Below, one piece after another: positions 3 to 57,394 of a stretch of DNA of 64,000 bases (within the stretch, counting starts at the first letter, position 1; each line of letters opens with the position of its first letter). The DNA comes from Ostreococcus lucimarinus. Lineage: Eukaryota. Both the position numbers and the translations under genes were made by a program. Location: the NCBI GenBank assembly GCA_000092065.1, contig CP000601.1; one strand, written 5' to 3'. Below the pieces are notes generated by a model. That model had not been told where the DNA came from, ran no database searches, and saw only the letters and a list, made by a program, of their open reading frames with translations.

Positions 3-698
3 GGGAGTTACTTGTACGACACGTCGATTCCGCTCAAGCTGCCGTCGTTGTCGGAGAGCGTGCGCGTACCGGCGTACGTGGCACACGATTACATGCAGCG
101 CACGATGCGATTGACGGCATTTTCACGGTCGTGGCCGAGCTTGTTTGTCGCCGCGAAGAACACGCGATCGTCCCTGCACGTCGATCAGTGGCAGGGGCAC
201 TTTTTCATGGCCGTGGTGCGCGGCACGAAGCGATGGACCGTCTTCTCGCGCGAATCGCTCGCGTTTTTACGGCCGAGCTGGTCGCGCGGCACGCTCGATC
301 CCGCGATGCCACCGTTGGAGGAACAAGAAGAGATGGGAATGTTACCGCTCCCGCGTGAATTCGGCGCGCGCCGATGGGACGTCGATCTTGGCCCGGGCGA
401 GGTGCTTTTCGTGCCGGGCGGCTCGCCGCACGCCGTTCGAAACCTCGATTGCACGGTGGCGTTCGCGGGAAACTTCGTCGACGACGTCAATCTGGACCGC
501 GTGTTGGAAGATTTAAAGCTCATGGCCGCCAAAGATCCCGCGTTGATGGAGAGCTACCGAGCGCTCGACGAGGTGGATTTCGACGACGAAGGCGCCGCGC
601 TCGCGGCGGGCGACGACGACGTCCACGCGGGCGCGTTCGACGCGAACGCGCGCGTCGTGCGAGTCGCCGATTATCTCGCGGGGGGGCGACTCGTGTGA
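3..698 (+). CDS. JmjC/cupin-fold 2-oxoglutarate oxygenase-like protein, 5' end outside the window
   Basis: The frame is open from the window edge to the TGA at 696-698. It has the HxD...H metal-ligand pattern (SLHVDQ ... GGSPHAVRNL) followed by AFAGNFVD, typical of JmjC domains. Confidence 0.7.
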   Translation, partial: GSYLYDTSIPLKLPSLSESVRVPAYVAHDYMQRTMRLTAFSRSWPSLFVAAKNTRSSLHVDQWQGHFFMAVVRGTKRWTVFSRESLAFLRPSWSRGTLDPAMPPLEEQEEMGMLPLPREFGARRWDVDLGPGEVLFVPGGSPHAVRNLDCTVAFAGNFVDDVNLDRVLEDLKLMAAKDPALMESYRALDEVDFDDEGAALAAGDDDVHAGAFDANARVVRVADYLAGGRLV

Positions 699-924
699 TG
701 GGATGGATGTCTCGCGTCGCGTCTCGGAGTTCGGGACGAGGGGTTCGCGGCGTCGTGAAAAAGTGACAAAAAAATCAGGGAAGCCGAGCTCCCCCCATGG
801 GGGTGAATCTCACAGCGATAAATTTTTTAAAGTACTATCCGTCACCCCGAAACGACGAAAGTCACAGTGTTGTCGTGTCGCTTTTCCATCACGGACAATC
901 GGGTGTGGGAAAAAGTAAGGTGTG

Positions 925-934
925 ATGTCGACAC
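925..934. promoter_or_regulatory. ZDRE-like palindrome ATGTCGACAC (matches RTGTCGACAY) inside the left direct repeat
   Basis: Exact match to the degenerate 10-mer. It lies 3 nt beyond the 3' end of the tRNA-derived segment. Confidence 0.35.
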
Positions 935-936
935 AT

Positions 937-1036
937 CTCTTCCTGCGGGTTTCGATCCCGCGGCTTCCAGATCTCTATCGGAGCAGCCGTCATATTCGAC
1001 GGAGACTTTTTCCTAACAGTCTGACACTCTACCAGC
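937..1036 (-). pseudogene. 5'-truncated tRNA-Asn(GUU) copy (tRNA positions 15-73 including the 41-nt intron)
   Basis: Identical to 6872-6971 of the intact gene. It lacks the first 14 nt (5' acceptor strand and start of the D arm), so it cannot fold into a cloverleaf. Confidence 0.85.
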
Positions 1037-1066
1037 AAAATTGTTTACAGAGATACCGCGACGAGA

Positions 1067-1443
1067 TTGAAGCAATACAAGGAACTCGATGGGCACCTGA
1101 TGAACGCCTCCGTGTGGGACGAGTATTTGACCCCAGAGATGCTCAGTCTGTATAATCCCGAAACAGACCAATTCGAGGAGCCCAAGCACTGGCTAAATGG
1201 GAAGCGTGTAGGAATTGCAATACTGGCGGATGATGTAAAATCGAGTCCGTTGCTGTCTAACAAAGCCTGGCGCAACCTGTGTATCAAATGCCGCCACCTT
1301 GGATCCTTCCCTGACAGTTCTCCACCAATAGGGTGCTCGATTTTCTGCGCGAGGTCAAGGACGCCGACGCGACGCTCCCAGACAAGTTGAAAGCCGAGGT
1401 ACCGACCATGCTTCAGAAAGGCGTGCGCGCGTATCTGGATTAA
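1067..1443 (+). CDS. Hypothetical small protein, possibly two exons (1067/1100..1234 and 1318..1443)
   Basis: Two ORF segments in different frames join in phase 0 across a GT...AG interval at 1235-1317 (GTAAAA ... CTGACAG), giving ...GIAILADD|FSTNRVLDFLREVKDADATLPDKLKAEVPTMLQKGVRAYLD*. No family was recognised. The first ATG is at 1100. Confidence 0.25.
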
Positions 1444-1666
1444 GCTTCACAAGTACCGTGGTGTGGGTAACATCTGGGACATCTTATCGAAATAATTCAT
1501 CGATGTTCGCCAGGAGATCGAGGAACAGGTGCCGTAAATTACGAAGAGCGTTTCGATTTACAATTTATATGATCCTCTAGCTTGAAAAATAGATCTCCGT
1601 CAGTGGCCGTGGGTGTGTTTGCCACAACTTGATTTGATAGTAATTGACATTTTTTTACCGCTCTCA

Positions 1667-3196
1667 TTAGTGCGCGTGTGCGTGTGAGTCTCCGCCACCG
1701 CCACCGCCTGTGCAATGCTTGTGGTTGAGGAGCACGAGACTGATGGCAACAACGCCGACGATGAAGGTGAGAATGCTCGTCGCGCGAAGACGAGGTGAAG
1801 TGGCGCTCACTGATACTCGGGGCATGCACTCTGCGGCGGCGATTTGCAGATAGACTCCAGCACCGAAGGCGAGCAGCAGTCCATGCCAGAAGTCGTTGTT
1901 ATTTCCCGATCCAACACTAATGAGGACGCCAAGAATGACACTCAAGCCGGAAACGAAGTTTAAAGTCAGCGTCGGCAACGGCGCGAGATCGCCCTGGAAG
2001 GGGTCTACGAGCACCAAGTAGTCAGCAAGCTCTTGAGCGATTTCGTGATAGACGGTCGCGGCGGTGATCGACCATCCCATGGTACTGTCGCAGTTCAGAA
2101 AGCCGAAGCCAATGAAAATACCATCCACTAGGTTGTGCATGAAATCTCCAAGAATGATACCACTTCGAACGCGATACTTGTGTGAGTTACAAGTACAAGT
2201 ATCACAGTCATCTTGAGCGCCTTTGACTGCAAGTTCCGCATCGGTTGTCTTCGCTGTATTTCCAAGAGTTGGGAACACGACAGAGATACCAAAGTCGATG
2301 AAGTAGGCCATGAGAAAGCCGAAGATAGAAGCGGAAGCCCACCATGCGGTCTGCTCTGCCTCATCCGAGCCAGCAGGTTTGATTAAATGCGTGGCTTCGT
2401 AGAACATCAGATAAAACGCAGCCGAAAGAAGTGCGCCGGCGGCAAACGAGTTAATTGTGCAACTCACAGTTTCAGGGTACGCTTTCTGCTTCTTAGCGAT
2501 ACTCGGGATGAGAAAGACCACACCAGAAAGTGTGACGATATTGACGATAATTGCCGCCCCAATGGCGTTGGCCCACGGTTTTGATTTCGATTCGCTCACG
2601 GTGGATGCTTCGGGAAGTGAAGCTTTTGGCACCACGTCATCTCCGTGGAGGTCCTTGAGATAGTGCGCGTCGCGCTCGAACTCGGTGGGAACGTGCTCAG
2701 CGAAGATTGAGATCGCGTCGATGCCAGTCGTATTAATCTTAAACGGCGTCGTGTGCCAGGTGTTGTCAAATTCAAGGTTGACACACCCACTATCAGGTGT
2801 CAAAACACTATCTCGTATCTTAGCCGTCGTACAAGCTCCCCCGATTGCGGTATCACCGCTATCCTCGCGGGCTTCGAGCTCGTCGTGTCCGGCGGCGATT
2901 TCGTCGTAGATGACCATTTTCATGGTATCGGCGGCGTACTTATCGGCCACCTTTTGCGCCTGCCACACGTATTCATTCTCTGGCGTCTCAAAGATTCCAG
3001 CCCATTCGAATGCGTGCGCGCCGGACGCGTGCGCGCCGCGCTGCGCGAGCGCGCTCGCGACGATCGCGATGCCACCACCGAGCGCGCTCGCGCAGCGCAT
3101 CGTTCGCCCTCGTCGTCGCTCGACCGTCCTCGCACCGCGTGCGCGTTCGCGCGGCGGCATCGTCGTCTTCGTGTTCTTCGTGTTTTCGTTCGTCAT
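1667..3196 (-). CDS. ZIP-family (Zrt/Irt-like) divalent metal transporter
   Basis: ZIP signature helices HNLVDGIFIGFGF and HEIAQELADYLVL, several hydrophobic TM segments, a Cys/His-rich loop (DDCDTCTCNSHKY) and a His-rich C-terminus (DSHAHAH). Alternative starts are M13 (3160) and M33 (3100, followed by a signal-peptide-like MRCASALGGGIAIVASALA). Confidence 0.85.
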   Translation of the reverse strand: MTNENTKNTKTTMPPRERARGARTVERRRGRTMRCASALGGGIAIVASALAQRGAHASGAHAFEWAGIFETPENEYVWQAQKVADKYAADTMKMVIYDEIAAGHDELEAREDSGDTAIGGACTTAKIRDSVLTPDSGCVNLEFDNTWHTTPFKINTTGIDAISIFAEHVPTEFERDAHYLKDLHGDDVVPKASLPEASTVSESKSKPWANAIGAAIIVNIVTLSGVVFLIPSIAKKQKAYPETVSCTINSFAAGALLSAAFYLMFYEATHLIKPAGSDEAEQTAWWASASIFGFLMAYFIDFGISVVFPTLGNTAKTTDAELAVKGAQDDCDTCTCNSHKYRVRSGIILGDFMHNLVDGIFIGFGFLNCDSTMGWSITAATVYHEIAQELADYLVLVDPFQGDLAPLPTLTLNFVSGLSVILGVLISVGSGNNNDFWHGLLLAFGAGVYLQIAAAECMPRVSVSATSPRLRATSILTFIVGVVAISLVLLNHKHCTGGGGGGDSHAHAH

Positions 3197-3325
3197 CGTT
3201 TCCGTCGTCGTCGTCGTCTTCGCCGGCGTCGGTAAGTGCGGCTGCGCACAAACTAAAGCGGCATACGAACCGAACCGGCGCGATGGAGGGCGGTCGTTTA
3301 TAAGTCACGACTCGCGAACGACAAA

Positions 3326-3482
3326 ATGTCGACATCCGCCGCAGTGTCGACACATCTCGGTGGTACTTGGATATGTCGAAATATGTCGACATGTGCGTCG
3401 AGACGTTTTTCGTATATAGATGCATCACGGGGTTCAATGCGTACACGCGCGTGGGTAAATATGTCGACATGCGTGTCGACAT
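3326..3482. promoter_or_regulatory. Cluster of five exact RTGTCGACAY palindromes (ZDRE-like) in the bidirectional ZIP/COG0523 promoter
   Basis: Exact matches: ATGTCGACAT 3326-3335, GTGTCGACAC 3344-3353, ATGTCGACAT 3383-3392, ATGTCGACAT 3461-3470, GTGTCGACAT 3473-3482. There is also a 9/10 match, ATGTCGAAAT, at 3373-3382. Confidence 0.6.
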
Positions 3483-3546
3483 GTTTACGACGCGCGTCGC
3501 GACGCGATCCGTGATGGGCTTCGCGGGGCGTCGCGTACGACGATCC

Positions 3547-3589
3547 TCGACACGTGCACGACGCGAATCGTCGACACGTGCACGACGCG
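3547..3589. promoter_or_regulatory. Two copies of the 19-mer TCGACACGTGCACGACGCG (GTCGACAC half-site overlapping a CACGTG G-box) just upstream of the COG0523 start
   Basis: Copies at 3547-3565 and 3571-3589, with a 5-nt spacer. CACGTG occurs at 3551-3556 and 3575-3580. Confidence 0.45.
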
Positions 3590-3658
3590 CGCGCATCGCC
3601 GCACTTCGCGACGCCTCTTCGGCTCGTTCGCGCGCGGAGACGTCGATCGCCGTACATC

Positions 3659-5299
3659 ATGTCCACACCCGCCGCAATCGCCAATCATAATCGATTGCCG
3701 GTGACAACGCTGTGCGGGTTCCTCGGCGCTGGGAAGACGACAACTCTGAAACGCGTGCTCGAAGCTAAGCGAGACGCGAACGGAAAGTTTCGGTGTGCCG
3801 TCGTCGTGAACGACGTCGCGGAGTTGAACATCGACAAAAAATTAATCGATGATTCCGCTTTGCTGCAGAGCGACGAGGTGGTTGCCATGCAGAACGGATG
3901 CGTGTGCTGTTCGTTGAGCGGAGACTTTGTAAAACAAATCGGGGACATGGCCAAGAGTGGCAATTTTGACTACATGATCGTAGAGGCATCAGGAGTGTCG
4001 GAACCGGCGGAAATTGCGAAACTCTTCGCAAATTGTGAGGACGATCACGATCATGAAGCTGCGCACGTTGATGAGCATGAACATTTGAGCACACTGGCGC
4101 GGCTGGATACGTGCGTGACGGTCATCGCTGCAGGTGACTTTCTCGACATGATTGATTCTTTCAGGGCGTCAGCTGTGAACAGGCAGTCTTACTCTCAATT
4201 GTTGGCTGAACAGATAGAGTACGCGAATGTCGTCGTATTGAACAAGGTCGACACTGTCGATGACGAACAACTCGCCGAGATTAAAGCGCAGATACAACTT
4301 CTCAATTCACGTGCTGATATTCTTGAAGCTGTGAACGGCGCGATCGACGTTACGCGAATCGTCAATACAAAACTTTACAAAGAGAATGACTTTGCTGGTT
4401 TCATAACATGGGAACAAGAGATAGAAGCAACATCTGTGAAGTCATGCTGCGCCGGCGCTAGGGACAAAGGTGAGTCTCCATGCTGTAAGCGAGCTCGCAT
4501 GAGAGAAACAGCCTTAAGCGAGGTCACGCTTGCACCAAGTTCTTCCCAAACACGTCACGATAGTCGGTTCGGTATTACGTCTTTCATTTACCGAGCCAGA
4601 AGACCTTTTCATCCCAAACGGTTTTTAGGCTCATTTGTCGAGCGCTTCTTCAGCTCCCTCGAGGCCGATGACCGTGATGAAGAAAAAGATGAAGAGACAC
4701 CAAGTGTAGACTGGAGTGCAGTGAAAGATATTCGAGCGCGACAAGAAGCGATGAAACTCAAGCGCCGTAAAAGGGAAGGTGAAATTGGTGTGCTGCTACG
4801 TTCGAAGGGTGTAACGTGGCTCAGTGATGCCCACGACTTGATAATTGTTTTCAGTCAGGCTGGTAATATTTACTCTCTCGAAGGATCAAGCCGATGGACC
4901 GCGCTGAATAAAAATGCTTGGGTCGGCTCACAGGGGATAAAGCAAGAACTTCGTAAAGACTGGGAGGGGCCTTATGGTGATCGCCGACAAGAACTGGTGT
5001 TCATTGGCAAGGATCTTAAATACGATGAAATTCAATCAACGTTGGACTCTTGCCTCTTGACCGACGAAGAATTCGAAATGGGTTCTGATGGCTGGAGAGC
5101 AGTCATGGGTGATGTCTTTCTAGACGAAGACGACGAAGACGAAGACGACGAAGTCGATGACGAAGACGACGAAGAAATCGACGAAGATTTGGTCGACGAC
5201 GAGGAGATCGAAGAGGAGATCAGGCCGCAACCCACTTCAAAGTCGAAGGCAAAACCAAAGGCAAAGTCGGCGCCCTCTCAAAACGACGGCTTAGTCTGA
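3659..5299 (+). CDS. COG0523/CobW-family GTPase, eukaryotic ZNG1-type putative zinc metallochaperone
   Basis: Walker A GFLGAGKTTT, CxCC metal motif GCVCCS, His-rich stretch EDDHDHEAAHVDEHEH, and a CobW_C-like region (RFGITSFIYRARRPFHP ... GDRRQELVFIGKDL ... LDSCLLTDEE) followed by a long acidic tail. The ATG at 3659 was chosen over the upstream alternative-start ORF (3554). Confidence 0.9.
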   Translation: MSTPAAIANHNRLPVTTLCGFLGAGKTTTLKRVLEAKRDANGKFRCAVVVNDVAELNIDKKLIDDSALLQSDEVVAMQNGCVCCSLSGDFVKQIGDMAKSGNFDYMIVEASGVSEPAEIAKLFANCEDDHDHEAAHVDEHEHLSTLARLDTCVTVIAAGDFLDMIDSFRASAVNRQSYSQLLAEQIEYANVVVLNKVDTVDDEQLAEIKAQIQLLNSRADILEAVNGAIDVTRIVNTKLYKENDFAGFITWEQEIEATSVKSCCAGARDKGESPCCKRARMRETALSEVTLAPSSSQTRHDSRFGITSFIYRARRPFHPKRFLGSFVERFFSSLEADDRDEEKDEETPSVDWSAVKDIRARQEAMKLKRRKREGEIGVLLRSKGVTWLSDAHDLIIVFSQAGNIYSLEGSSRWTALNKNAWVGSQGIKQELRKDWEGPYGDRRQELVFIGKDLKYDEIQSTLDSCLLTDEEFEMGSDGWRAVMGDVFLDEDDEDEDDEVDDEDDEEIDEDLVDDEEIEEEIRPQPTSKSKAKPKAKSAPSQNDGLV

Positions 5300-5761
5300 T
5301 GTCTTTCTAGGTGACACTGAAGCGGAACAGGGTGGAGATGTGGACTCGGGCAACTCTTCCGACATGTAAGCTTGTCCTTTATAGTGAGCCCACACCGATG
5401 TGAGCGCAAGTCATTTTTATGCACACAGTGACATCTTCATCGAATACCAGACGTGGTTGCCAGCGGCTGCGCGCGGTCAAGATAGCGCGACGAAGGTCGG
5501 CAATAAGCTCAAGGACTTCTTCAAGAAGGAAAAGGGCCACAGGGTCCCAATGGAAGAGGACCACCTGAGGCAAGGTAGAGACGAGAAGGGCGTCTATTGG
5601 GAAATTCACCGCGACGGGTGCTTCGAGTGGCTGAAGGACAATGGGTACACAGGGGAGACGGAGCTCGCGCCGGCGGTCGTCTGGTGCTCATACTAATTTT
5701 GTAATTCGTACATTTGCAATATGAAGACTCAACGAGACACCAAAAAGACCATGGTTTGGAT

Positions 5762-5952
5762 CCTGACGAAATGACGAATGACGAACTGTTTTCATAAAGG
5801 TCCACACTGTTGCTTGTCATAGATCTAAAATAAAAATAAACATTAAAATATTTTAACATTTCGTCATTTTCATCATTGGTACACACAAAGTGTCACCGAA
5901 CGACGGGTTGACGAATTTGTGGACGACAAAACAAGTTCGTCATTTCGTCAGG
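5762..5952. repeat. Inverted repeat (CCTGACGAAATGACGAA[TGACGAA]CT / AGTTCGTCATTTCGTCAGG) flanking about 145 bp of very AT-rich spacer
   Basis: Left arm 5762-5787, right arm 5934-5952. The arms are 19 nt complementary once a 7-nt duplication in the left arm is allowed. A further TTCGTCATTTT motif lies near 5866. Confidence 0.4.
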
Positions 5953-6130
5953 TCTCGACGGATCACGAACGTCCAGGTGTGAAATCAGGCGGTTCGGTAT
6001 CTACATTCCGGACCTTGCAGCCCACGCAGCGATACGCGTACCTATGGTCTCTCGGATGTGACTGCAAACCGCAGGAGGAGGCACTTTTGGCAACAATATT
6101 TTCTTAGGGATAGATAGGTAACCAGGACAA

Positions 6131-6628
6131 ATGCCGTCGGGATGCGTGTACGAAATGTTTAGCGATAATGCGAAATGTAACAAAACGTACATCGGATCGA
6201 CGACGGGTTCGCTCAGAGCGCGCCTTGCCTCGCATAAATACGCACGACATCCAATCTTCACGTTTGGCGACGCGGACGTGAGAGTTCTCGAAAAGGACAT
6301 TCCAGCTGGAGAGCTCCATCAACGTAAAGGTGCCTACATGAGAGAGAAGCGTGACGGCTTATTCAACTCCCGAGCTGCTGGACGCAGCCAGAAACACGCG
6401 TGCCGCGAGAACGTGGACGAGAGTCCAGCCTACAGCAGAGCTCAATATACGCCGAAGCGGGACGGCGGCGATGGTAACTACAGACAACTCAATTATTACA
6501 AGCAGCACGCAAAAGGAATACTGCGCAAGACGTGCCTCAAGAATGCCCGAGCGCGCGGCACGCTGCCTTCGAAGCGCAGTCTCGACAAGTATCAATTTAC
6601 GGTAGATGAGTTACGCGGCTTGGCTTGA
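6131..6628 (+). CDS. GIY-YIG nuclease-like protein (homing-endonuclease-like)
   Basis: N-terminal GCVYEMF-x9-YIGSTTGSLRARLASHK matches GIY...YIG...R...H spacing. It is followed by VRVLE (candidate catalytic Glu) and an LFNSRAAG segment. The C-terminal half is basic. The ORF is lower in GC than most of the window. Confidence 0.55.
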   Translation: MPSGCVYEMFSDNAKCNKTYIGSTTGSLRARLASHKYARHPIFTFGDADVRVLEKDIPAGELHQRKGAYMREKRDGLFNSRAAGRSQKHACRENVDESPAYSRAQYTPKRDGGDGNYRQLNYYKQHAKGILRKTCLKNARARGTLPSKRSLDKYQFTVDELRGLA

Positions 6629-6844
6629 CCACTTCACTCACACGATTGGTTCTGGAGAAATCTTACATGCGGTACATCAACGTCGATGTGCGGTTTTATC
6701 ATGTTGGGGTGCCCCAACTCAAAAAAAAAGTTTATTTTTATTACTCATAGCGATAAATTTTTTAAAGTACTATCCGTCACCCCGAAACGACGAAAGTCAC
6801 AGTGTTGTCGTGTCGCTTTTCCATCACGGACAATCGGGTATGGG

Positions 6845-6849
6845 AAAAA
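6845..6849 (-). terminator. Candidate RNA polymerase III terminator (T5 on the minus strand), 22 nt downstream of the tRNA
   Basis: AAAAA on the plus strand is TTTTT on the tRNA strand. It is the first T-run after the discriminator base. Confidence 0.5.
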
Positions 6850-6859
6850 GTAAGGTTTG

Positions 6860-6869
6860 ATGTCGACAC
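6860..6869. promoter_or_regulatory. ZDRE-like palindrome ATGTCGACAC in the right direct repeat, 3 nt downstream of the tRNA 3' end
   Basis: Exact RTGTCGACAY match, duplicated from or to 925-934. Confidence 0.35.
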
Positions 6870-6871
6870 AT

Positions 6872-6985
6872 CTCTTCCTGCGGGTTTCGATCCCGCGGCT
6901 TCCAGATCTCTATCGGAGCAGCCGTCATATTCGACGGAGACTTTTTCCTAACAGTCTGACACTCTACCAGCTGAGTTAAGGAAGA
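6872..6985 (-). tRNA. tRNA-Asn (anticodon GUU) with a 41-nt intron at the canonical 37/38 position
   Basis: Manual cloverleaf: acceptor TCTTCCT/AGGAAGA, D arm ACTC-AGCTGGTA-GAGT, anticodon stem TCAGA/TCTGG, loop CTGTTA|intron|A, variable loop AAGCC, T arm GCGGG-ATCGAAA-CCCGC, discriminator G. The mature length is 73 nt. The T loop has A54/A60, unusual for an elongator tRNA. Confidence 0.8.
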
Positions 6986-7232: not shown

Positions 7233-10200
7233 GTGGATACGATGGATTCGACGCGGTGCGCGACGTGCCGGGCCGTCGTGCGCGGCGGCGCGGCGACGTG
7301 CGCGGAATGCGGGGCGCCGCAGGGCTACGATTCGGATTCGGACGCAACGATTCGCGTCGACGATGACGATGATGACGATGATTCTTCGCACTACGCCCGG
7401 GACGCCCGGGACTCGAGCGCTTCAGACGCCGACTCGAGCACTTCCGCCTCGTCCACGACTCGGCGTCGGCGGGAAGTCGAGTCGCGCGAGCGGGAGATGG
7501 AGGAATCGCCCGAGGCGTTGAAATTGTTGTACATGCTGAGTTTGTACACCGACGCGTCTCAGAAACAGTCGAAGTCGAAGTCTGCGGTTTCCAACAACAA
7601 CAACAACAAACGTTCTCCCTGGATTCGCGAGCTGCCGCTCCTGGTGCTCGTGTACGAGGGCATCGTGCGAAACGCGGTGTTCGATTACGATTACGCGCCA
7701 AAATCAGAAAAGATATTTGGAGCGTGTCCGAGGTATTTGAACGTCTCGGAAGAGGGACGAGACGATTTAGACGATTTGCGTGAGCTTGGTTTCATCACGG
7801 CGCTCAAGGTGACGAGCGAGACGTACGATCACTCGACGTTGTTGAAGATTTCCAAGAAGGGGAGCGAATTCTTGCAGAGGATGACGGCCTCGGGACGGTT
7901 CACGAGCGCGATGCGCCAGTCGGTAGATTCGTTGGTGCACGAAGCTGGTCACCTCCTCGAGGTGCGGTACGACCGCGAGTCCTCGGATTTTTTCCTCACC
8001 GTCCCCTCGATCGGGGTCCGCATCCGCTCCACCATCACGGACGTCGAAGACGTGCCGTACGTCTCGTCTCCGTACATCCCTCCGCACATGCTGAGCTCCG
8101 ATGCGTTCACACCGAACGCGTTGAACGGGCACAAAAAGGCAAAACGCGTGCTCGGCGGCGCCGTTCAAAGTAGTCGCGATATTCGCGACCCGCGCCTGAG
8201 TGAAAGTATCTTGCTCGACTCGGTGAAAATCATCGTCACCGAATACGTGCCGATGGGATCGAACGAAATGGTTTCTTTCTGTAGAAAACTCGGCACGGGA
8301 GACCGCGTCGCGGGCGGTATGTTCACCGCGGAAGCGAGCGCGACGCAGGACGAATTCAACATGGTGGTCGGGATCAACGCCGACAATAAAACCGAGCTAA
8401 AAGTCCTCGACGTCGACGAAACGCGATTCGTAAACGTCGAGGCAGACTTGCTCGCCACCGGGGCGCCCAAGAGTAACTTGGTGCAGCAGCAAATCGAGGT
8501 TTTCGGCATCAACTTTCGGGAAAACGGCGCCATCACTTACGGCATCGTCGTCAACGGCATCGCCGATCGAATTCGAAACGATATCAGCGTCGATTTACTC
8601 GCGCGCTTACTTTCCGACGTCCACGAAGACACGAGCTCGCTGGTGGGAAATTTATTTTCCGAGCGTCAGCGCTCCATGTTGAACATCACATACAAGGGCG
8701 AGCCGGACAATCGCGACAAGTTTACGTGCATCATCGCCGAGCGCGCGACGCCAAAACTGAAAGCCGCGGCGTACATGGATGGTGAAGATAACGAAAACGA
8801 GCTCAAGCAAGTCATCGGCGCGACGTTTTACGCGTACGACCTGAACGAACAAGAAGTCATCGTCTTTGGTTCACGCGGTGTCGTCGTCTTTGGTCCGCGC
8901 ACCGAACGTCATCACAAGCTTCTCGCGACATATTCAGCGTTCCAAGCTCGCTCGTTGTTCATCAAAAGTGTCTTCAGCAGTTGTTTCGCGCTGAACGACG
9001 AGTTGAAGAAGACGCGAGCGTTGATTGAAACCTATCAGATCGATCCGACGAACGTAACGCGCATTCGTTCGCGCCTCGCCGATCACACGACGACGGTGAC
9101 GATCTTGAGCGCCACTCAGCAGTTCGTGCTCGAGTCGCTCGAAAACGTCGACACGTCTCGTGAAAAGTTGAGCGCGGATATGAGCGACGGCGCGTCGCAA
9201 GTGTTGTACGACTTGTTTCAGTTGGAACCGTCGTGGAAACGCTTGCAAAGACGCGCCGTTGACTTGGAAAAAGTCATCGCGGCGTGCGTCAACGATCTCG
9301 AGTCTCTGCGAGAAATGAACGCCGTCATCGGCTCACGAAGAAAGCTCCGCATCAACGAGGCGATAGAAGGGACGACGAAAAACTTAGAGGATGCTTTCCG
9401 AGCGCAGGCGCGCAACAGCACCACGCTCGAGGTGACGCAAGTGATTTTGTCGGGGACGCTCGCGTTTGACATTCTCGATCGATTCACGGGGCAATACCTT
9501 TCGTTCACCGAGATTCGATGGGCCGTCGAAGCGGTGCAGCCGTACATAGTGAATGTTCCCGCGGTTTGGTTCATCTTGAACATGCTCGCGTGGTCGGCGT
9601 TGGGCGGTGGAATTGTTTATTTGATGCGCTACTTGGCCTACATGCATTGCAGCGTGGAGACGAAAAAGCTCACACTCAATAAACCCATTCATTTGTCGCG
9701 ATGGCGGCGATTCATCGCGACGCGCAACGTGGAGTCGACGGCTTTTAAGGAGGAGAACAACCGTCGCGTGGTGAAATACGGCTGGACCGAGCCCATCGAC
9801 GTCAAAAAGTGGAAAGGAACGCCCCCGAAGATTAACGTCACCATCGACGAGCGATACGGTTTCATCTTGCAAGCGATGATCATCATCAATAAGCGCACGT
9901 GTACGCTCTCCGGCGATGCGGTGTGGCGTCAATTTTGGAGCGATGTTTTCGTCGCTCGCAACGTCCACGATCAAAGTCGAGAGCTGTTTGACACCGACAC
10001 CGGCGACCGTTTGCAAACGGCCGAATATTCGTCAGAAGAAGAAGACGAGACTCGCCGCGACGTCACGGCCAAGATCATCGGCATCGACAACCGAAAGTCC
10101 ACGTTAAAGTGGCGCGATGGCAGGCAAATCCTCGCGCAAGACGACACCGACGACGACATCGATTCGGACGAGGAGGCGATCGCGAAGACGGGCGATTTGA

Positions 10201-10292
10201 CGTTTGAAGGCTTCGTCGCGTCCAGGTCGTTGAAACTCGCTCGAGAGGAAGAGAAGGCTAAAAAGAAACGAGCGGCAAGGATGGAAAAGTGA
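7233..10292 (+). CDS. Large hypothetical protein with an N-terminal zinc-ribbon-like CxxC-x10-CxxC, acidic tracts, a coiled region and one C-terminal TM helix
   Basis: 1019-aa ORF with balanced composition after the N-terminus. It contains RCATCRAVVRGGAATCAECG, VPAVWFILNMLAWSALGGGIVYLM and a K/E-rich tail. No family was confidently recognised; the C-terminal layout loosely recalls CorA/DUF155-type proteins. Confidence 0.6.
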   Translation: MDTMDSTRCATCRAVVRGGAATCAECGAPQGYDSDSDATIRVDDDDDDDDSSHYARDARDSSASDADSSTSASSTTRRRREVESREREMEESPEALKLLYMLSLYTDASQKQSKSKSAVSNNNNNKRSPWIRELPLLVLVYEGIVRNAVFDYDYAPKSEKIFGACPRYLNVSEEGRDDLDDLRELGFITALKVTSETYDHSTLLKISKKGSEFLQRMTASGRFTSAMRQSVDSLVHEAGHLLEVRYDRESSDFFLTVPSIGVRIRSTITDVEDVPYVSSPYIPPHMLSSDAFTPNALNGHKKAKRVLGGAVQSSRDIRDPRLSESILLDSVKIIVTEYVPMGSNEMVSFCRKLGTGDRVAGGMFTAEASATQDEFNMVVGINADNKTELKVLDVDETRFVNVEADLLATGAPKSNLVQQQIEVFGINFRENGAITYGIVVNGIADRIRNDISVDLLARLLSDVHEDTSSLVGNLFSERQRSMLNITYKGEPDNRDKFTCIIAERATPKLKAAAYMDGEDNENELKQVIGATFYAYDLNEQEVIVFGSRGVVVFGPRTERHHKLLATYSAFQARSLFIKSVFSSCFALNDELKKTRALIETYQIDPTNVTRIRSRLADHTTTVTILSATQQFVLESLENVDTSREKLSADMSDGASQVLYDLFQLEPSWKRLQRRAVDLEKVIAACVNDLESLREMNAVIGSRRKLRINEAIEGTTKNLEDAFRAQARNSTTLEVTQVILSGTLAFDILDRFTGQYLSFTEIRWAVEAVQPYIVNVPAVWFILNMLAWSALGGGIVYLMRYLAYMHCSVETKKLTLNKPIHLSRWRRFIATRNVESTAFKEENNRRVVKYGWTEPIDVKKWKGTPPKINVTIDERYGFILQAMIIINKRTCTLSGDAVWRQFWSDVFVARNVHDQSRELFDTDTGDRLQTAEYSSEEEDETRRDVTAKIIGIDNRKSTLKWRDGRQILAQDDTDDDIDSDEEAIAKTGDLTFEGFVASRSLKLAREEEKAKKKRAARMEK

Positions 10293-10457
10293 AAGCCGCG
10301 CGATCGCGGCCGCGGTGAAGCGAGGTAGGCCGCCCGCGTCGTCGTCGTCGTCCCTCCCGTCGGGTAGAATAGACAAATTGCTACGTCACACACAGAGAAC
10401 CGACCCAAACTTCACGTCGCGACGCGCGCGAGGCGCCCGACGTCGGCGTCGATCGCC

Positions 10458-11867
10458 ATGCGCGCCGCGTGCGTGCGCGTCGTCGTCCCGGACGTCCCGT
10501 CGTCGTCGTCGTCGTCGTCGGGCGCCGCCGTCCCGACCTGGCTCCCTCCCGGCACGGGATTCGTCTCAAAAAGCCTCAAACTCGACGTCTCTCGACCCTC
10601 CCGCGCGACGCAGTGCGAATTCTACGTCGTCGGTACCTCCCACGCGAGCGCGGCGGCGGCGGCAGACGTTCGACGGGTCATACGACGCGCGAAACCGCAG
10701 GCTGTGGTGCTCGAGCTCGACCAAGAGCGCGCCGACGCCCTCGTCGCGAGCTTCGTCGAACGCGCGCGCGTGATCGACGATTCCGAATACGGGAGCGATT
10801 TGTTGACCGGTATCATCGAATCAGAGCGCGAGGACGCGCTGACGGTGTACGGGGACGTGCGGGCGAGAGGTATAGGCGAGGCGTTGGCGGCTCGCGCGTT
10901 CGGGACGAACCCTTTCGCGATCGAACGGTGGAAAACGGTGTTGGCGTACGTGAAAAACGCGTGGGATGGTGGATCCGTGGGTGTTTCGAGCGATGGCGCG
11001 CTCGCCGCGGCGGACGTGGCGAGAGCTCTCATGGACGAGCCGAGAAATCTGACGCCGCTCGCGGGACCGGCGGCGGCGTTCGTCGCGGCGACGTTGGCGA
11101 GCTTGGCGATGCCGAACGGAGCGGAGAACGGTCTCGTGGACGCAGTCGGCGTGTTCCTTGCGCTTTTATTATTTTGCCCGCTCGTGGAGACGCTGTGGAT
11201 GGAAAGAGACGAGGTGTTGTGCGCCAACGCGTTGAACGCCGTCGACGTGTGCTCGGGCATCGCTCGAGGGCGGGTACGCCGCGTGCGATTTGGGTTTTCC
11301 ACCGATCCGTCGGCGACGAAGAAGAGCATGCAAACATTCACCCCGAGTGATGCTGGCGCGGTGCCGTGCTTCACGCTGAAACGTCCGCTGAAACGGGGCG
11401 AAACGAGAAGGCTGAACTTGTGGGAGCCGCGTTGGCTAGCGCTCATGGACTCGCTCGCGGAAGCGAATGGCGGATCCCTCGTGGGCGCCGAGCTCGGGTG
11501 TTTACTCGGGCGCGCGAGACATTACGTGAGTAGTTCTTGCTTTGAGATTCTAGGCGATGCGGCTCGACGTACTGGAACCGTGGCCGTTGAGGATTCCATG
11601 CGCCGCGCACGAGTGACGCGCGTGGTGGAGGGCGAGCGCCCGACGACAAAGGCTCGGAAATTGGAGGTTTGGATCGAAGGAATGGACGAGTGCGACGTGC
11701 ACGCGTTAGAGACACATCCGGCTGGGTATTTACTCGCGAGCGCGAGCGTCGAGGCGTCGCAAGCGCCGCGGATTGATGAAGACGACGACGAAGTCGTCAC
11801 GTGCGTCATCGTCACCGGCTTGGCGCACGCGAACGGCATCGTTCGCGGCATAGCCGAGGCGCAGTAG
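10458..11867 (+). CDS. TraB-family domain protein with a C-terminal LON-N (PUA-like) substrate-binding-type domain
   Basis: EFYVVGTSHASAAAAADVRRVIRRAKPQAVVLELD resembles the TraB/PrgY N-terminal motif. PCFTLKRPLKRGETRRLNLWEPRWLALM resembles the LON N-terminal domain start (LPLFPL...L.IFEPRY..M). Confidence 0.55.
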   Translation: MRAACVRVVVPDVPSSSSSSSGAAVPTWLPPGTGFVSKSLKLDVSRPSRATQCEFYVVGTSHASAAAAADVRRVIRRAKPQAVVLELDQERADALVASFVERARVIDDSEYGSDLLTGIIESEREDALTVYGDVRARGIGEALAARAFGTNPFAIERWKTVLAYVKNAWDGGSVGVSSDGALAAADVARALMDEPRNLTPLAGPAAAFVAATLASLAMPNGAENGLVDAVGVFLALLLFCPLVETLWMERDEVLCANALNAVDVCSGIARGRVRRVRFGFSTDPSATKKSMQTFTPSDAGAVPCFTLKRPLKRGETRRLNLWEPRWLALMDSLAEANGGSLVGAELGCLLGRARHYVSSSCFEILGDAARRTGTVAVEDSMRRARVTRVVEGERPTTKARKLEVWIEGMDECDVHALETHPAGYLLASASVEASQAPRIDEDDDEVVTCVIVTGLAHANGIVRGIAEAQ

Positions 11868-57384: not shown

Positions 57385-57394
57385 GTGTCGACAT
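57385..57394. promoter_or_regulatory. Isolated exact RTGTCGACAY match (GTGTCGACAT) in the divergent promoter between the SpoU methyltransferase and the 57461 gene
   Basis: Single copy, so functional relevance is unknown. Confidence 0.2.

Follow-up and report, generated by a model that had tools for sequence, protein, structure and literature searches.

Two direct repeats in the nuclear genome of Ostreococcus lucimarinus (assembly GCA_000092065.1, contig CP000601.1), each carrying part of a tRNA-Asn gene, bracket a small set of putative zinc-acquisition genes, which raises the question of whether these genes entered the locus by insertion and, if so, how. An earlier note on the same DNA, a stretch of 64,000 nt hereafter called the window, had read the partial tRNA duplication as the mark of an insertion at the tRNA gene. 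This reading is borne out: the repeats mark a lineage-specific 5.9-kb insertion inside the nuclear tRNA-Asn(GUU) gene, and we assign a probability of about 90% to a polymorphic insertion at a recurrent site within this gene.

Repeat units and the tRNA-Asn gene

809 to 1036: left repeat unit; 809-936 is the native 128-nt 3′ flank of the tRNA, the rest a displaced, 5′-truncated tRNA-Asn copy
937 to 1036, minus strand: partial tRNA-Asn (G15 to 73), with the 42-nt intron kept at its canonical position and positions 1-14 missing; 100/100 identical to 6872-6971
6744 to 6971: right repeat unit, in which the 128-nt flank and tRNA positions 15-73 recur and the functional tRNA is completed
6872 to 6985, minus strand: complete tRNA-Asn(GUU), interrupted after position 37 by a 42-nt intron (about 6907-6948); Rfam RF00005, ARAGORN -i

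A repeat search of the 64-kb window retrieved 809-1036 and 6744-6971 as a single two-copy family of gap-free, 228-nt direct repeats, and our own comparison reproduced the identity reported earlier (225/228; the mismatched pairs are 813/6748, 905/6840 and 922/6857). On both sides the similarity ends abruptly. BLASTN gave E-values of 1e-113 to 1e-118 and detected no third copy in the window. Each unit consists of tRNA-Asn(GUU) positions 15-73 and 128 nt of 3′ flank. As previously claimed, only the right copy belongs to a complete tRNA: Rfam calls a single gene (6985..6872, minus strand; 49 bits versus a gathering score of 29 bits) with a 42-nt insertion after position 37, and ARAGORN, which misses it by default, reports tRNA-Asn(gtt) with a 41-nt intron once introns are allowed. 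The sequence gives a cloverleaf fold (MFE of -38 kcal/mol). The left copy (1036..937), for which Rfam makes no tRNA call, does stop at tRNA position G15, with unrelated sequence from 1037 on. At the other end of the insertion, the left edge of the right unit (6744) shares the trinucleotide CTC with the end of the primase-helicase/GIY-YIG element fragment described below, so that the far junction of the zinc module shows 3-nt microhomology.

The 228-nt repeat is present in the reference strain, but its clean form is not general: the left copy carries an additional 87-nt insertion and differing SNPs in 10/10 wild contigs, and the clean repeat is therefore a peculiarity of the reference. Since these SNPs and the 87-nt insertion are common to the left copy and to empty-site alleles, we identify the left unit as the native 3′ part, now displaced, and the right unit as the second copy that keeps the tRNA intact.

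Empty sites in relatives and wild haplotypes

12 to 698, plus strand: 3′ part of a JmjC/cupin hydroxylase gene, the left host flank (Pfam Cupin_8 2.5e-11, JmjC 1.2e-7)
7233 to 10292, plus strand: right host flanking gene, about 1020 aa, with MJ1566_N/MJ1567 domains; syntenic in all relatives

The JmjC gene is likewise syntenic in all relatives, adjoining each homologue of the right flanking gene (92, 66, 61 and 58% identity), and lies upstream of the tRNA in contigs L011-L015. The empty site that the earlier note had proposed to look for was found. In the sister lineage (L011-L013; 92% identical) the JmjC gene, a single tRNA-Asn located 574 nt ahead of the next gene, and that gene are adjacent without any cargo; two more distant relatives (L014 and L015) display the same arrangement, as do three wild haplotypes (L020, L023 and L024) with flanks 96-99% identical to those of the window and with their own spacer alleles on the JmjC side, alleles never found together with cargo. 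Relatives and some of the wild haplotypes thus retain the ancestral order JmjC, tRNA-Asn, next gene. A dispersed repeat family, the alternative raised earlier, is contradicted by a search of the JGI metagenomes (241 million records) with a 48-nt pattern of the unit, which returned 6 stretches, every one of them at this locus.

A patchwork zinc cargo

1037 to 1666, plus strand: left cargo end, with an ORF open from the junction on and a first ATG at 1067 (frame translation)
1667 to 3196, minus strand: ZIP-family metal transporter gene (Pfam Zip 1.2e-21); the likely start yields 475 aa (1667-3094)
3197 to 3658: promoter shared by the divergent ZIP and COG0523 genes; ZDRE-type palindromes (RTGTCGACAY) occur at five positions, 3326, 3344, 3383, 3461 and 3473
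3659 to 5299, plus strand: COG0523-type G3E GTPase, 546 aa (Pfam cobW 6e-41, CobW_C 1.5e-18); carries the motif GCVCC, and the C-terminal tail is acidic
5400 to 5696, plus strand: 98-aa ORF, a C-terminal remnant of the Prim-Pol/DUF5906 primase-helicase gene of a dispersed element
5425 to 6746, plus strand: 5′-truncated piece (1.3 kb) of this primase-helicase/GIY-YIG element, 93-95% identical in nucleotides to three contigs
6131 to 6628, plus strand: intact GIY-YIG nuclease-like ORF, 165 aa (weak Pfam match, 0.009)

These matches agree with the cargo contents listed in the earlier note, including the ZDRE promoter, and additionally reveal a mosaic of four pieces: a gene fragment of obscure origin, a ZIP paralogue, an orphan COG0523 gene, and the truncated element. 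The ORF of the first piece has no Pfam match and is probably a 5′-truncated gene fragment. Homology to the native ZIP locus, a conserved chromosomal locus of Ostreococcus (L025-L029), ends at the ZIP stop codon (1667), and the two ZIP genes are 81% identical in amino acids and 78% in nucleotides. The RTGTCGACAY motif occurs 8 times in the window, versus 0.54 expected (0/100 shuffles), with 5 copies at 3326-3482; the promoter palindromes were also picked up in the repeat search (as repeats D7, D9 and I3), and ZDRE sites are present at the native ZIP locus too. Identities of COG0523 homologues fall from 100/97% directly to 53% (Cymbomonas). The best non-self matches are all from eukaryotic algae and protists (≤53% identity), consistent with the eukaryotic look previously ascribed to this protein; identity to the cobW gene adjoining the native ZIP is just 30%, and no orthologue from the sister lineage was found anywhere in the searched database. 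The GC content of the two cargo parts is 0.52 and 0.50, versus 0.61 for the window. We infer that the cargo functions as a cassette of a zinc-responsive ZIP importer and a COG0523 metallochaperone, strain-variable in its presence.

The element fragment matches three unrelated contigs (L018 991-2302, L016 9322-10519 and L017 3479-4006). All three extend upstream of the point at which the window diverges (5425), the window fragment being cut off within the primase-helicase gene, and the homology to L018 stops at 6746. The 98-aa ORF aligns with the final ~90 codons of a 733-aa gene (L017 1549-3750; Prim-Pol 1.5e-8, DUF5906 1.9e-14, PHROG DNA primase 1e-32). The GIY-YIG-like protein, identical under two GenBank accessions and near-identical under a third, is a member of a small family that is associated with Ostreococcus and present in multiple copies (32 clusters at 49-96% identity, PF01541 being detected in 7) in which G4, Y7, Y20-I-G22, R31, H35 and N79 are conserved. 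Its AlphaFold model has a pLDDT of 72, and the top 7 PDB matches in Foldseek are all UvrC GIY-YIG domains, with weak E-values of 0.1-0.9.

A second cargo at the same nucleotide

6969 to 6972: AGCT palindrome in the D-loop (tRNA A14-T17), the recurrent junction site

Beyond what the earlier note described, a second cargo of 3.8 kb, C2, which is unrelated to the first, occupies the same junction nucleotide in other wild haplotypes, either by itself or together with the zinc module in a tandem. Both junctions fall between 6971 and 6972 (tRNA A14 and G15): ...CTACCAGC is followed by AAAATTG in the zinc module and ...CTACCAGC by GAGGTGG in C2. In addition, wild haplotypes possess a 100-nt intron-like insertion, ins1, between 6969 and 6970 (C16 and T17), 2 nt from the cargo junction, where ...CTACCA is followed by CTGCGATA; it is present in 22/25 occupied tRNAs and in 0/6 empty ones. 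C2 brings its own tRNA-Asn 3′ part (90% identical) and its own 3′ flank. The junction between the unit and C2 was seen in 11 contigs, and that joining the C2-borne tRNA part to ins1 and the tRNA 5′ part in 10. The unique junctions of the zinc module and of C2 each recur in at least 11 contigs from different samples and pipelines, the wild contigs not being independent samples of one another; contigs crossing the 226-330-nt unit (assembler k ≤141) could be chimeric, and reliance can be placed only on junctions that contain unique k-mers.

The locus has been further rearranged, with signatures of end joining. One deletion joins 5757 to 6831 with filler bases; L037 displays TTCGAC microhomology and has a breakpoint at which position 3235 of C2 meets 1004; and L040 has a breakpoint in the promoter, at about 3413. 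The GIY-YIG ORF is deleted in many occupied haplotypes. Signs of recombination between repeats include the left unit of the window, which has lost the 87-nt insertion and bears right-type SNPs, the right copy of L008, which has gained that insertion, and L043, which retains a C2-type tRNA part without C2.

Mechanism of insertion

The junctions look more like break repair than Campbell-type integration, and the most likely mechanism, at roughly even odds, is that the tRNA gene was broken repeatedly at one specific site and repaired by homology-assisted and end-joining routes. The D-loop AGCT would be the site at which breaks recur with nucleotide precision; the two junction positions are symmetric about G15-C16, which fits a cut staggered by 2 nt. 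In the case of the zinc module, the 228-nt target would have been duplicated through a further break 228 nt from the first, overhang fill-in and end-joining capture of foreign DNA, while for C2 one side of the broken end may have been repaired from another tRNA-Asn copy as homologous template and the other side end-joined. The best candidate break-maker would be a nuclease of the multi-copy GIY-YIG family, acting in cis or in trans; one member is encoded 243 nt away from the tRNA gene. Later, the repeats carrying the tRNA part may have recombined homologously and undergone gene conversion, with modules shuffled, homogenised and deleted as a result.

Several observations speak against parts of this scenario. 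The weak Pfam and fold matches of the candidate nuclease (E of 0.009 and, in Foldseek, 0.1), the loss of its ORF from many occupied haplotypes and the location of the L016-L018 copies away from tRNA genes argue against its role as break-maker. The reference tRNA is intact and without ins1 beside the nuclease gene, leaving self-immunity unexplained. Simple in situ duplication would not predict the systematic differences between left and right units in wild contigs, unless followed by precise later loss of the 87-nt insertion. Finally, the tRNA 5′ part beside C2 contains ins1, but the displaced copy terminates in ...ACCAGC; this GC is hard to obtain from an ins1-bearing recipient and most easily derived from a donor att site, which favours a Campbell-type donor with tRNA homology.

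Integration is a tentative second possibility: circular elements would have used the tRNA-Asn 3′ part (15-73) as attachment site, integrase-type or Campbell-type recombination near the D-arm regenerating the gene. It would account for tRNA homology ending identically in two unrelated cargos, and for the diverged tRNA part and flank of C2, the exchange point lying no more than 22 nt short of the junction. In tandem, the zinc module precedes C2, which lies closest to the tRNA 5′ part, an order reminiscent of serial integration. L010 links the GIY-YIG side via the unit to the ZIP side, as in a circle or tandem junction, but the assembler may have switched within 150 nt of identical sequence, which would account for this contig, and contig L037 is not circular. 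Protists are reported to contain endogenous polinton-like viruses with tyrosine recombinases, with 1-2 capsid genes in Ostreococcus (PMC10120064). However, domain searches revealed no integrase, recombinase or transposase in the zinc module, C2 or L016-L018, so the recombinase would have to be encoded elsewhere (e.g., in a full-length primase-helicase element) or be an unrecognised one such as the junction-adjacent 487-aa ORF of C2, whose model is uninformative (pLDDT of 35). Moreover, the junction-adjacent arms of the two cargos have no common sequence, and the element/unit junction bears end-joining-type microhomology. The 128-nt flank in the zinc module's "att" copy is locus-specific and not conserved even in the sister lineage; an incoming element would therefore need a prior origin at this locus.

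Transfer RNA genes are known to be fragile and to attract insertions. Random breaks at a fragile gene (e.g., through transcription-replication conflict or R-loops), with duplication and capture but no site-specific enzyme, would fit this general reputation and the many end-joining breakpoints over the locus noted above, the common junction nucleotide then being coincidence or shared ancestry of one partial copy. We consider this unlikely: the zinc module, C2 and ins1 are three independent events that fall within 2 nt of one another in a ~600-nt intergenic region, symmetrically on a 4-nt palindrome, and the unit-C2 junction is not inheritable from the unit-ZIP one, as the sequence beyond differs at the first base.

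That the cargo is ancient and native, the repeat a local segmental duplication and the module lost in relatives, is very improbable and contradicted by the empty sites. The ZIP paralogue and the ZDRE sites at its native locus do give the module a "green-algal" style, but the module would have to have been lost precisely and independently in at least four lineages, with a single intact tRNA remaining every time, and the COG0523 gap between 53% and 97% identity, cargo GC 9 points under the surroundings and the truncated mobile-element fragment inside the cargo also speak against a native module. Mis-assembly through the repeat, which metagenome assemblers cannot resolve (L010, L030 and L037 may be chimeric), is less credible still as the source of the duplication or the empty sites, given that the window matches a finished reference genome, that both unique junctions recur across samples and pipelines, that empty-site alleles are cargo-free, and that the sister lineage has no COG0523 orthologue in the searched database.

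Bacterial islands and prophages integrate at tRNA genes and regenerate them, and integration would have both cargos do likewise. The O. lucimarinus tRNA-Asn site, empty in close relatives and filled with another insert in other wild strains, thus behaves like the tRNA-gene "genomic island" hotspots of bacteria.

Repeat pair and tRNA-Asn gene

The 228-nt direct repeat described in the earlier note is one two-copy, gap-free family with 225 of 228 positions identical (mismatches at 813/6748, 905/6840 and 922/6857); similarity ends sharply on both sides, and a third copy is absent from the 64-kb window. The complete tRNA gene associated with the right copy carries a 42-nt insertion after position 37 and reaches 49 bits with Rfam, the threshold being 29 bits. 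Default ARAGORN called zero tRNAs in the window; intron-aware ARAGORN recovers the gene, as does Rfam, and assigns it to tRNA-Asn(gtt), and a cloverleaf fold was obtained. The left copy holds, as had been proposed, a partial gene consisting of the last 100 nt of the tRNA (100/100 identical), accompanied by 128 nt of 3' flank and stopping at G15. The insertion lies inside the tRNA gene and the duplicated 3' part completes that gene, which is the restoration expected of tRNA islands. The proposed contents also held, ZIP, COG0523 (cobW and CobW_C), a weak GIY-YIG match and a ZDRE promoter all being found between the repeats.

Main features of the locus
809-1036: left copy of the repeat unit
1036..937, minus strand: partial tRNA-Asn gene
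1037-1666: ORF open straight from the left junction
3326-3482: five ZDRE sites in the divergent promoter shared by ZIP and COG0523
5400-5696: 98-aa ORF
5425-6746: element fragment
6744-6971: right copy of the repeat unit
6985..6872, minus strand: complete tRNA-Asn(gtt) gene
6969-6972: AGCT palindrome (tRNA positions A14-G15-C16-T17)

A ZDRE-type palindrome (ATGTCGACAC) is located 3 nt past the tRNA 3' end in both units (925-934 and 6860-6869); it is polymorphic among wild haplotypes (GTCAACAC, GTTGACAC) and missing from the sister lineage.

Empty sites and distribution of the cargo

Contigs of relatives were reached via homologues of the right-hand flanking gene. The flanking gene order is constant among them (eIF3, PP2C, P450, mitochondrial carrier, JmjC, the gene of ~1030 aa, TraB-like, RRM, WD40), and the search for empty sites suggested in the earlier note was successful: no ZIP, COG0523 or GIY-YIG gene separates JmjC from the next gene in contigs L011-L015, L020, L023 and L024. 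The cargo-free lineages are those at 92% (sister lineage, L011-L013, contigs of up to 140 kb), 66% (L014) and 58% identity (L015). In L011, the 574-nt gap holds one tRNA-Asn gene in the same orientation, and only about 30 nt of its 3' flank are similar to that of the window. At its gathering score, Rfam missed the tRNAs at the relatives' loci, a false negative due to extra insertions; these genes were recovered by reading the sequence and excising the insertions in silico. A tRNA-like sequence in L014, considered as a clean intron-bearing tRNA, was dropped since its 3' half could not be reconstructed.

Three wild contigs (L020, L023, L024) with flanks 96-99% identical to the window display the order JmjC, unit, intact tRNA, next gene, with no cargo. 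Their JmjC-side spacers are alleles never found joined to cargo, which argues against assembly collapse. A dispersed repeat family, one of the alternatives raised in the earlier note, is dismissed by the distribution of the unit: besides the two copies in the window, a scan of JGI metagenomes with a 48-nt pattern from its non-tRNA part returned six stretches, every one at this locus, and not the many copies at unrelated loci characteristic of SINE-like sequences. Empty sites, together with a unit confined to the locus, indicate that the cargo is a lineage-specific, polymorphic insertion. Loss of a native cargo in the relatives was rejected on account of these empty sites and of the gap between COG0523 homologues, which falls from 97% to 53% identity. 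The duplication is confirmed and its reading as an integration supported. Contigs crossing the unit derive from short-read assemblers; full reliability is accorded to the reference sequence and to junctions with unique k-mers only.

An added zinc module

The ZIP domain (PF02535, 1.2e-21) and both domains of the COG0523 protein (cobW, 6e-41; CobW_C, 1.5e-18; motif NGCVCCS in the translation) are present in the cargo. The promoter between the two genes holds five RTGTCGACAY sites, and the whole window has 8 against 0.54 expected. Another ZDRE, at 57385-57394, was discarded as a marker of a further zinc gene, its neighbours being a SpoU methylase and an ORF without family match. Judging from these domains and sites, the cargo is predicted to encode a zinc-responsive ZIP importer and a COG0523 metallochaperone, and presence or absence of such a cassette could underlie ecotype differences in zinc-poor surface waters.

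Homologues of the COG0523 protein are found at 100% and 97% identity, followed by a gap down to 53% (Cymbomonas) and then by diatoms and other protists; in contrast, the flanking gene has Mamiellales orthologues at 92, 66, 61 and 58%. The cargo ZIP is 81% identical in amino acids and 78% in nucleotides to the ZIP of a conserved Ostreococcus locus (contigs L025-L029), and this homology ends exactly at the ZIP stop codon. At the native locus (L026 7548-11419; also L027-L029), ZIP is likewise divergent from a cobW-family gene, with ZDRE sites in between. This native cobW is a different paralogue, 30% identical to the cargo COG0523, implying that the cargo is an added second zinc module rather than a replacement of the native one. 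Being open straight from the left junction, the ORF at 1037-1666 suggests a truncated gene. The GC content is 0.52 in 1037-5424, 0.50 in the element fragment and 0.50-0.52 in the element-bearing contigs L016-L018, against 0.61 for the whole window.

Window 5124-5296 (58 codons of the acidic, D/E-rich COG0523 tail) is absent from most wild contigs. The deletion is flanked by two direct repeats of GATGTCTTTCTAG (5112-5306), and the COG0523 protein has a length of 507, 510 or 546 aa.

GIY-YIG ORF and its parent element

The cargo is a mosaic, its right-hand part being a fragment of another element. The 165-aa GIY-YIG ORF is identical to two separately accessioned proteins of O. lucimarinus CCE9901 (ABO99431.1 and ABP01176.1) and nearly so to a third (ABO99767.1), so that the window is nuclear DNA of this alga and the ORF has several copies in its genome. 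Its family comprises 32 clusters at 49-96% identity, all of them unnamed metagenome or Ostreococcus sequences, with PF01541 detected on 7; the ORF of the window by itself falls under the Pfam cut-off. Residues GxxY, YIG, R31, H35, H40 and N79 are conserved in the family alignment. The AlphaFold model (pLDDT 72) has an N-terminal beta-beta-alpha-beta-alpha domain, and its best seven PDB fold matches are all UvrC GIY-YIG domains, at weak E values of 0.1-0.9; a sequence search of the PDB with the ORF gave no match. The family residues, PF01541 and the weak UvrC fold matches agree in placing a GIY-YIG catalytic domain here.

The fragment is 93-95% identical to segments of three unrelated contigs (L016-L018). 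In L017 its first 270 nt form the 3' end of a gene for a 733-aa Prim-Pol/DUF5906 primase-helicase (PHROG primase, 1e-32), so that the 98-aa ORF is a remnant of this gene (its last ~90 codons). All three contigs extend upstream of 5425, where the window diverges, indicating that the window copy is 5'-truncated. On the other side, the homology of L018 stops at 6746, leaving a 3-nt overlap (CTC) with the start of the right unit. The parent element on L017 thus possesses a replication gene, the primase-helicase, which has 601 members in its 90% cluster; the contig also carries several ORFs without family match and a weak terminase-like (packaging-ATPase-like) C-terminal fragment (3e-4), and the window holds no capsid or packaging ATPase gene. 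This element of Ostreococcus is probably virus-like, whether polinton-like or of another type. IMG/VR contained no relatives of the primase-helicase, the GIY-YIG protein, the 487-aa ORF of the second cargo, COG0523 or either tRNA-Asn exon half, and so provides no evidence for a known virus as vector.

The parent element loci (L017 1-13622, L016 ~9300-10520, L018 ~990-2300) have a GC content of ~0.51. L017 and the window share 93.6% of nucleotides over 529 nt, yet their GIY-YIG proteins are only 60% identical. A common wild variant (L032, L033, L037, L038, L041, L043, L044) lacks window 5758-6830 and with it the entire GIY-YIG ORF as well as 87 nt at the start of the right unit; a few filler bases mark the junction. 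In cis, then, the nuclease-like gene can be dispensed with.

A second cargo at the same junction

In L019 and ten more wild contigs, the unit ends in the same ...CTACCAGC and is followed by an unrelated cargo, C2 (3.8 kb, GC 0.63), with ORFs of 487 and 273 aa, neither of which has a family match. The 487-aa ORF had no match among PDB sequences, and its single-sequence AlphaFold model (pLDDT 35) was unusable. At its end C2 brings a tRNA-Asn 3' part of its own, 90% identical, whose canonical intron and T-rich 3' flank both differ; this part adjoins the 5' part of the chromosomal tRNA. The segment (L019 4079-4175; also L030-L038 and L043) has identical exons but a differing intron, and a T-rich terminator flank of its own; it resembles the 3' half of another tRNA-Asn gene, either a paralogue or a foreign one. 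In L031, L034 and L039 the unit before C2 has the GIY-YIG side ahead of it, so that zinc module and C2 form a tandem; C2 follows the variant lacking 5758-6830 in L032, L033, L037 and L038, and comes directly after the JmjC-side unit once (L030). An apparent third context upstream of the unit in L019 was discarded, as it consists of 16 nt at the contig end only and other contigs of this haplotype have the GIY-YIG side at that place.

Both cargo junctions are located between tRNA A14 and G15. Most wild occupied alleles have, in addition, a 100-nt intron-like insertion (ins1) between C16 and T17. The four nucleotides A14 to T17 form the palindrome AGCT, whose centre lies midway between the two junction positions. 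AGCT is interrupted by ins1 in 22/25 occupied versus 0/6 empty tRNAs, these contigs not being independent and the reference and L009 combining a GIY-YIG ORF with an intact AGCT. No recombinase domain was detected with Pfam or PHROGs in any ORF of the zinc module or C2.

Intron-like insertions in the tRNA genes

In three Ostreococcus lineages, the tRNA-Asn orthologues are interrupted by 87-100-nt insertions between positions 16 and 17, 29 and 30, and about 64 and 65.

Intron-like insertions: sites on the window, where they are absent, and positions in contigs
6969/6970: site of ins1
6880/6881: site of ins2
L001 1807-1906: insertion present
L008 3383-3469 and 3559-3658: insertions present
L011 ~9533-9620: insertion present (sister lineage)
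L015 ~9720-9815: insertion present (more distant relative)

Read on the tRNA strand, these insertions follow the spliceosomal-intron pattern GT(A/G)AGT...CTGAC...Y-rich...(C/T)AG and not the bulge-helix-bulge type, and their excision in silico yields perfect tRNAs. The 87-nt ins2 of O. lucimarinus and that of the 92% sister lineage agree to ~96%, the neighbouring flank being unalignable. Permuted and intron-bearing tRNA genes of Ostreococcus are already known, with bulge-helix-bulge junctions (PMC3978253); no description of spliceosomal-type introns in tRNA genes was found in the literature. The sequence pattern at this locus points to tRNA genes interrupted by spliceosomal-type introns, and ins1 may protect occupied alleles from re-cutting.

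Exchange between the repeats and further rearrangements

The JmjC-side unit carries ins2 and 'T..T' SNPs in 10/10 wild contigs (L004, L006, L021, L022, L041, L043, L046-L049), as in the empty alleles L020 and L023 and the sister lineage, and the GIY-YIG-adjacent unit is free of ins2 in 15 of 16 contigs, with SNPs 'C..G'. The reference left unit has no ins2 and bears right-copy SNPs; being of the right-hand type, it makes the near-perfect 228-nt repeat a product of later gene conversion between units. In contig L008 the transfer occurred in the opposite direction. L043 retains the C2-type tRNA part but C2 itself is gone, as a deletion between repeats would produce. Breakpoints of the end-joining type are also found, namely the junction of 5757 with 6831, with filler bases, a TTCGAC microhomology at the novel junction of L037, and the breakpoint at ~3413 in L040.

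Two scaffolds exhibit more complex arrangements. In L040, found in three samples, a segment matching window ~3413-6973 places COG0523, the GIY-YIG ORF, unit and tRNA next to unrelated GC-rich host DNA (L040 1-7294) with genes for TPT, a choline transporter, a PolA exonuclease and LHC; the breakpoint at ~3413 lies inside the ZDRE promoter, and the scaffold has no ZIP gene. L037 (8078 nt) reads 98-aa ORF, deletion, unit, C2 (1-3235), last 33 nt of the partial tRNA (1004-1036), zinc module. It was rejected as a circular element because its ends fail to meet and one of them runs into unrelated GC-rich DNA.

Mechanism of insertion

The favoured explanation is that the D-loop AGCT is broken repeatedly and site-specifically and then repaired. 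For the zinc module, a staggered double break 228 nt wide would have been filled in and foreign DNA captured by end-joining, which would account for the 128-nt locus-specific flank in the repeat and for the microhomology at the far junction. In the case of C2, one side would have been repaired from another tRNA-Asn copy and the other end-joined. The best candidate for the break-making enzyme is the multi-copy GIY-YIG family, given that homing enzymes of this class leave 2-nt overhangs and that T4 SegB targets a tRNA gene region. The enrichment in occupied alleles of ins1, which destroys AGCT, is suggestive, the contigs not being independent samples.

The main rival is integration, of the integrase or Campbell type, of circles carrying a tRNA part. 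It would more easily account for the 'GC' kept before C2 in ins1-bearing alleles and for contig L010, in which positions 826-1140 run from the GIY-YIG side through the unit to the ZIP side, the junction expected of a circle or tandem. An assembly switch could also explain this contig, since switches can happen in a 150-nt identical stretch longer than the assembler k; L010 may thus be chimeric and was not accepted as proof of a circle. Circle integration is further weakened by the lack of a recombinase in both cargos, by the two cargo arms being unrelated to each other, and by L037 not being a circle.

The locus may represent a genuine cassette-exchange system at an Ostreococcus nuclear tRNA-Asn gene, in which a site-specific enzyme (GIY-YIG nuclease or unrecognised recombinase) opens AGCT and cassettes bearing a tRNA-Asn 3' part undergo insertion, stacking and excision and move from strain to strain; we hold this tentatively, at a probability of roughly 0.3. 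Little is known of how adaptive genes come and go in picoeukaryotes, and here a nuclear tRNA gene provides a landing site of nucleotide precision. The alga is among the most abundant in the sea, its wild strains harbour different cassettes, and empty, single and stacked states exist in nature, making eukaryotic gene-cassette mobility directly testable at this locus.

Comparison with known systems

No description of the locus, or of such an insertion in green algae, was found in the literature. Retrotransposons such as yeast Ty1/Ty3 and Dictyostelium TRE/DGLT-A insert up- or downstream of tRNA genes via the Pol III machinery, produce short target-site duplications and encode reverse transcriptase and integrase. 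They share with our locus the use of tRNA genes as landing marks for eukaryotic mobile DNA; unlike them, the cargo described here is inserted within the gene and contains no such enzyme genes.

In plants, the repair of paired nicks (two single-strand breaks lying close together) reportedly yields a tandem duplication together with an insertion, as Schiml et al. are said to have described in PNAS in 2016. Such repair accounts for a long (228-nt) target duplication around captured DNA and for junction microhomology, but fails for C2, where the repeat nearest the tRNA has diverged and brings a separate flank, and for a break recurring at one nucleotide.

Starships are fungal cargo-carrying elements moved by a tyrosine recombinase, many of them in 5S rDNA (PMC11162782). 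They too represent eukaryotic cargo insertions into a Pol III-transcribed gene, with direct repeats, empty sites, variable cargo and strain polymorphism. However, Starships span tens to hundreds of kb, encode a 'captain' recombinase, have direct repeats of 2-16 bp and disrupt the 5S gene (PMC11162782), whereas the inserts at our locus measure 4-6 kb, no recombinase was found, the repeats are 100-228 nt long and the tRNA is restored.

Polinton-like viruses and virophage-like elements carry primase-helicase and stand-alone GIY-YIG genes, and Ostreococcus genomes hold 1-2 of their capsid genes (PMC12220804, PMC10120064); in cryptophytes, no tRNA genes are found near the integration sites of polinton-like viruses (PMC12220804). 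The parent element resembles them in having a Prim-Pol/DUF5906 primase-helicase followed by a GIY-YIG gene, a weak packaging-ATPase-like match (L017), a GC content below that of the host and multiple copies in Ostreococcus-type contigs. It differs in that no capsid or integrase gene was identified and IMG/VR holds no relatives, and the window keeps only a 1.3-kb remnant.

Another parallel is offered by GIY-YIG homing endonucleases. Phage T4 SegB is a free-standing GIY-YIG enzyme cutting the tRNA gene region of related phages, and I-TevI and I-BmoI leave 2-nt 3' overhangs. The likeness extends to the small free-standing ORF beside a tRNA gene, the presence/absence polymorphism of this ORF and its neighbours, the position of three junctions (zinc module, C2, ins1) within 2 nt on the AGCT palindrome, and the linkage of the site-disrupting ins1 to occupied alleles. 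Unlike these enzymes, the candidate nuclease is eukaryotic and nuclear, its ORF is part of a truncated larger element and often deleted, and other copies of its family are not near tRNA genes.

Bacterial and archaeal islands, prophages and ICEs integrate in tRNA genes via tyrosine-integrase att sites, and such integration sites are reportedly the subject of work by Williams in NAR in 2002. With these islands our locus shares insertion in a tRNA gene, regeneration of that gene by a second copy of its 3' part, a displaced partial tRNA as the far direct repeat, empty sites in relatives, different cargos at one site, tandems and an adaptive cargo, here for metal uptake. It differs in its eukaryotic nuclear location, in the lack of a detectable integrase, in the intron-containing tRNA gene, in a crossover at the D-loop instead of the anticodon loop, T-loop or 3' end, in one repeat running 128 nt into locus-specific flank, and in end-joining microhomology at the junctions. 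The feature belongs to a kind well known in prokaryotes, of which it is a eukaryotic variant, and its mechanism is probably different. If true, the cassette exchange would be for eukaryotes what tRNA-linked genomic islands are for bacteria, a means of spreading adaptive traits, zinc acquisition among them.
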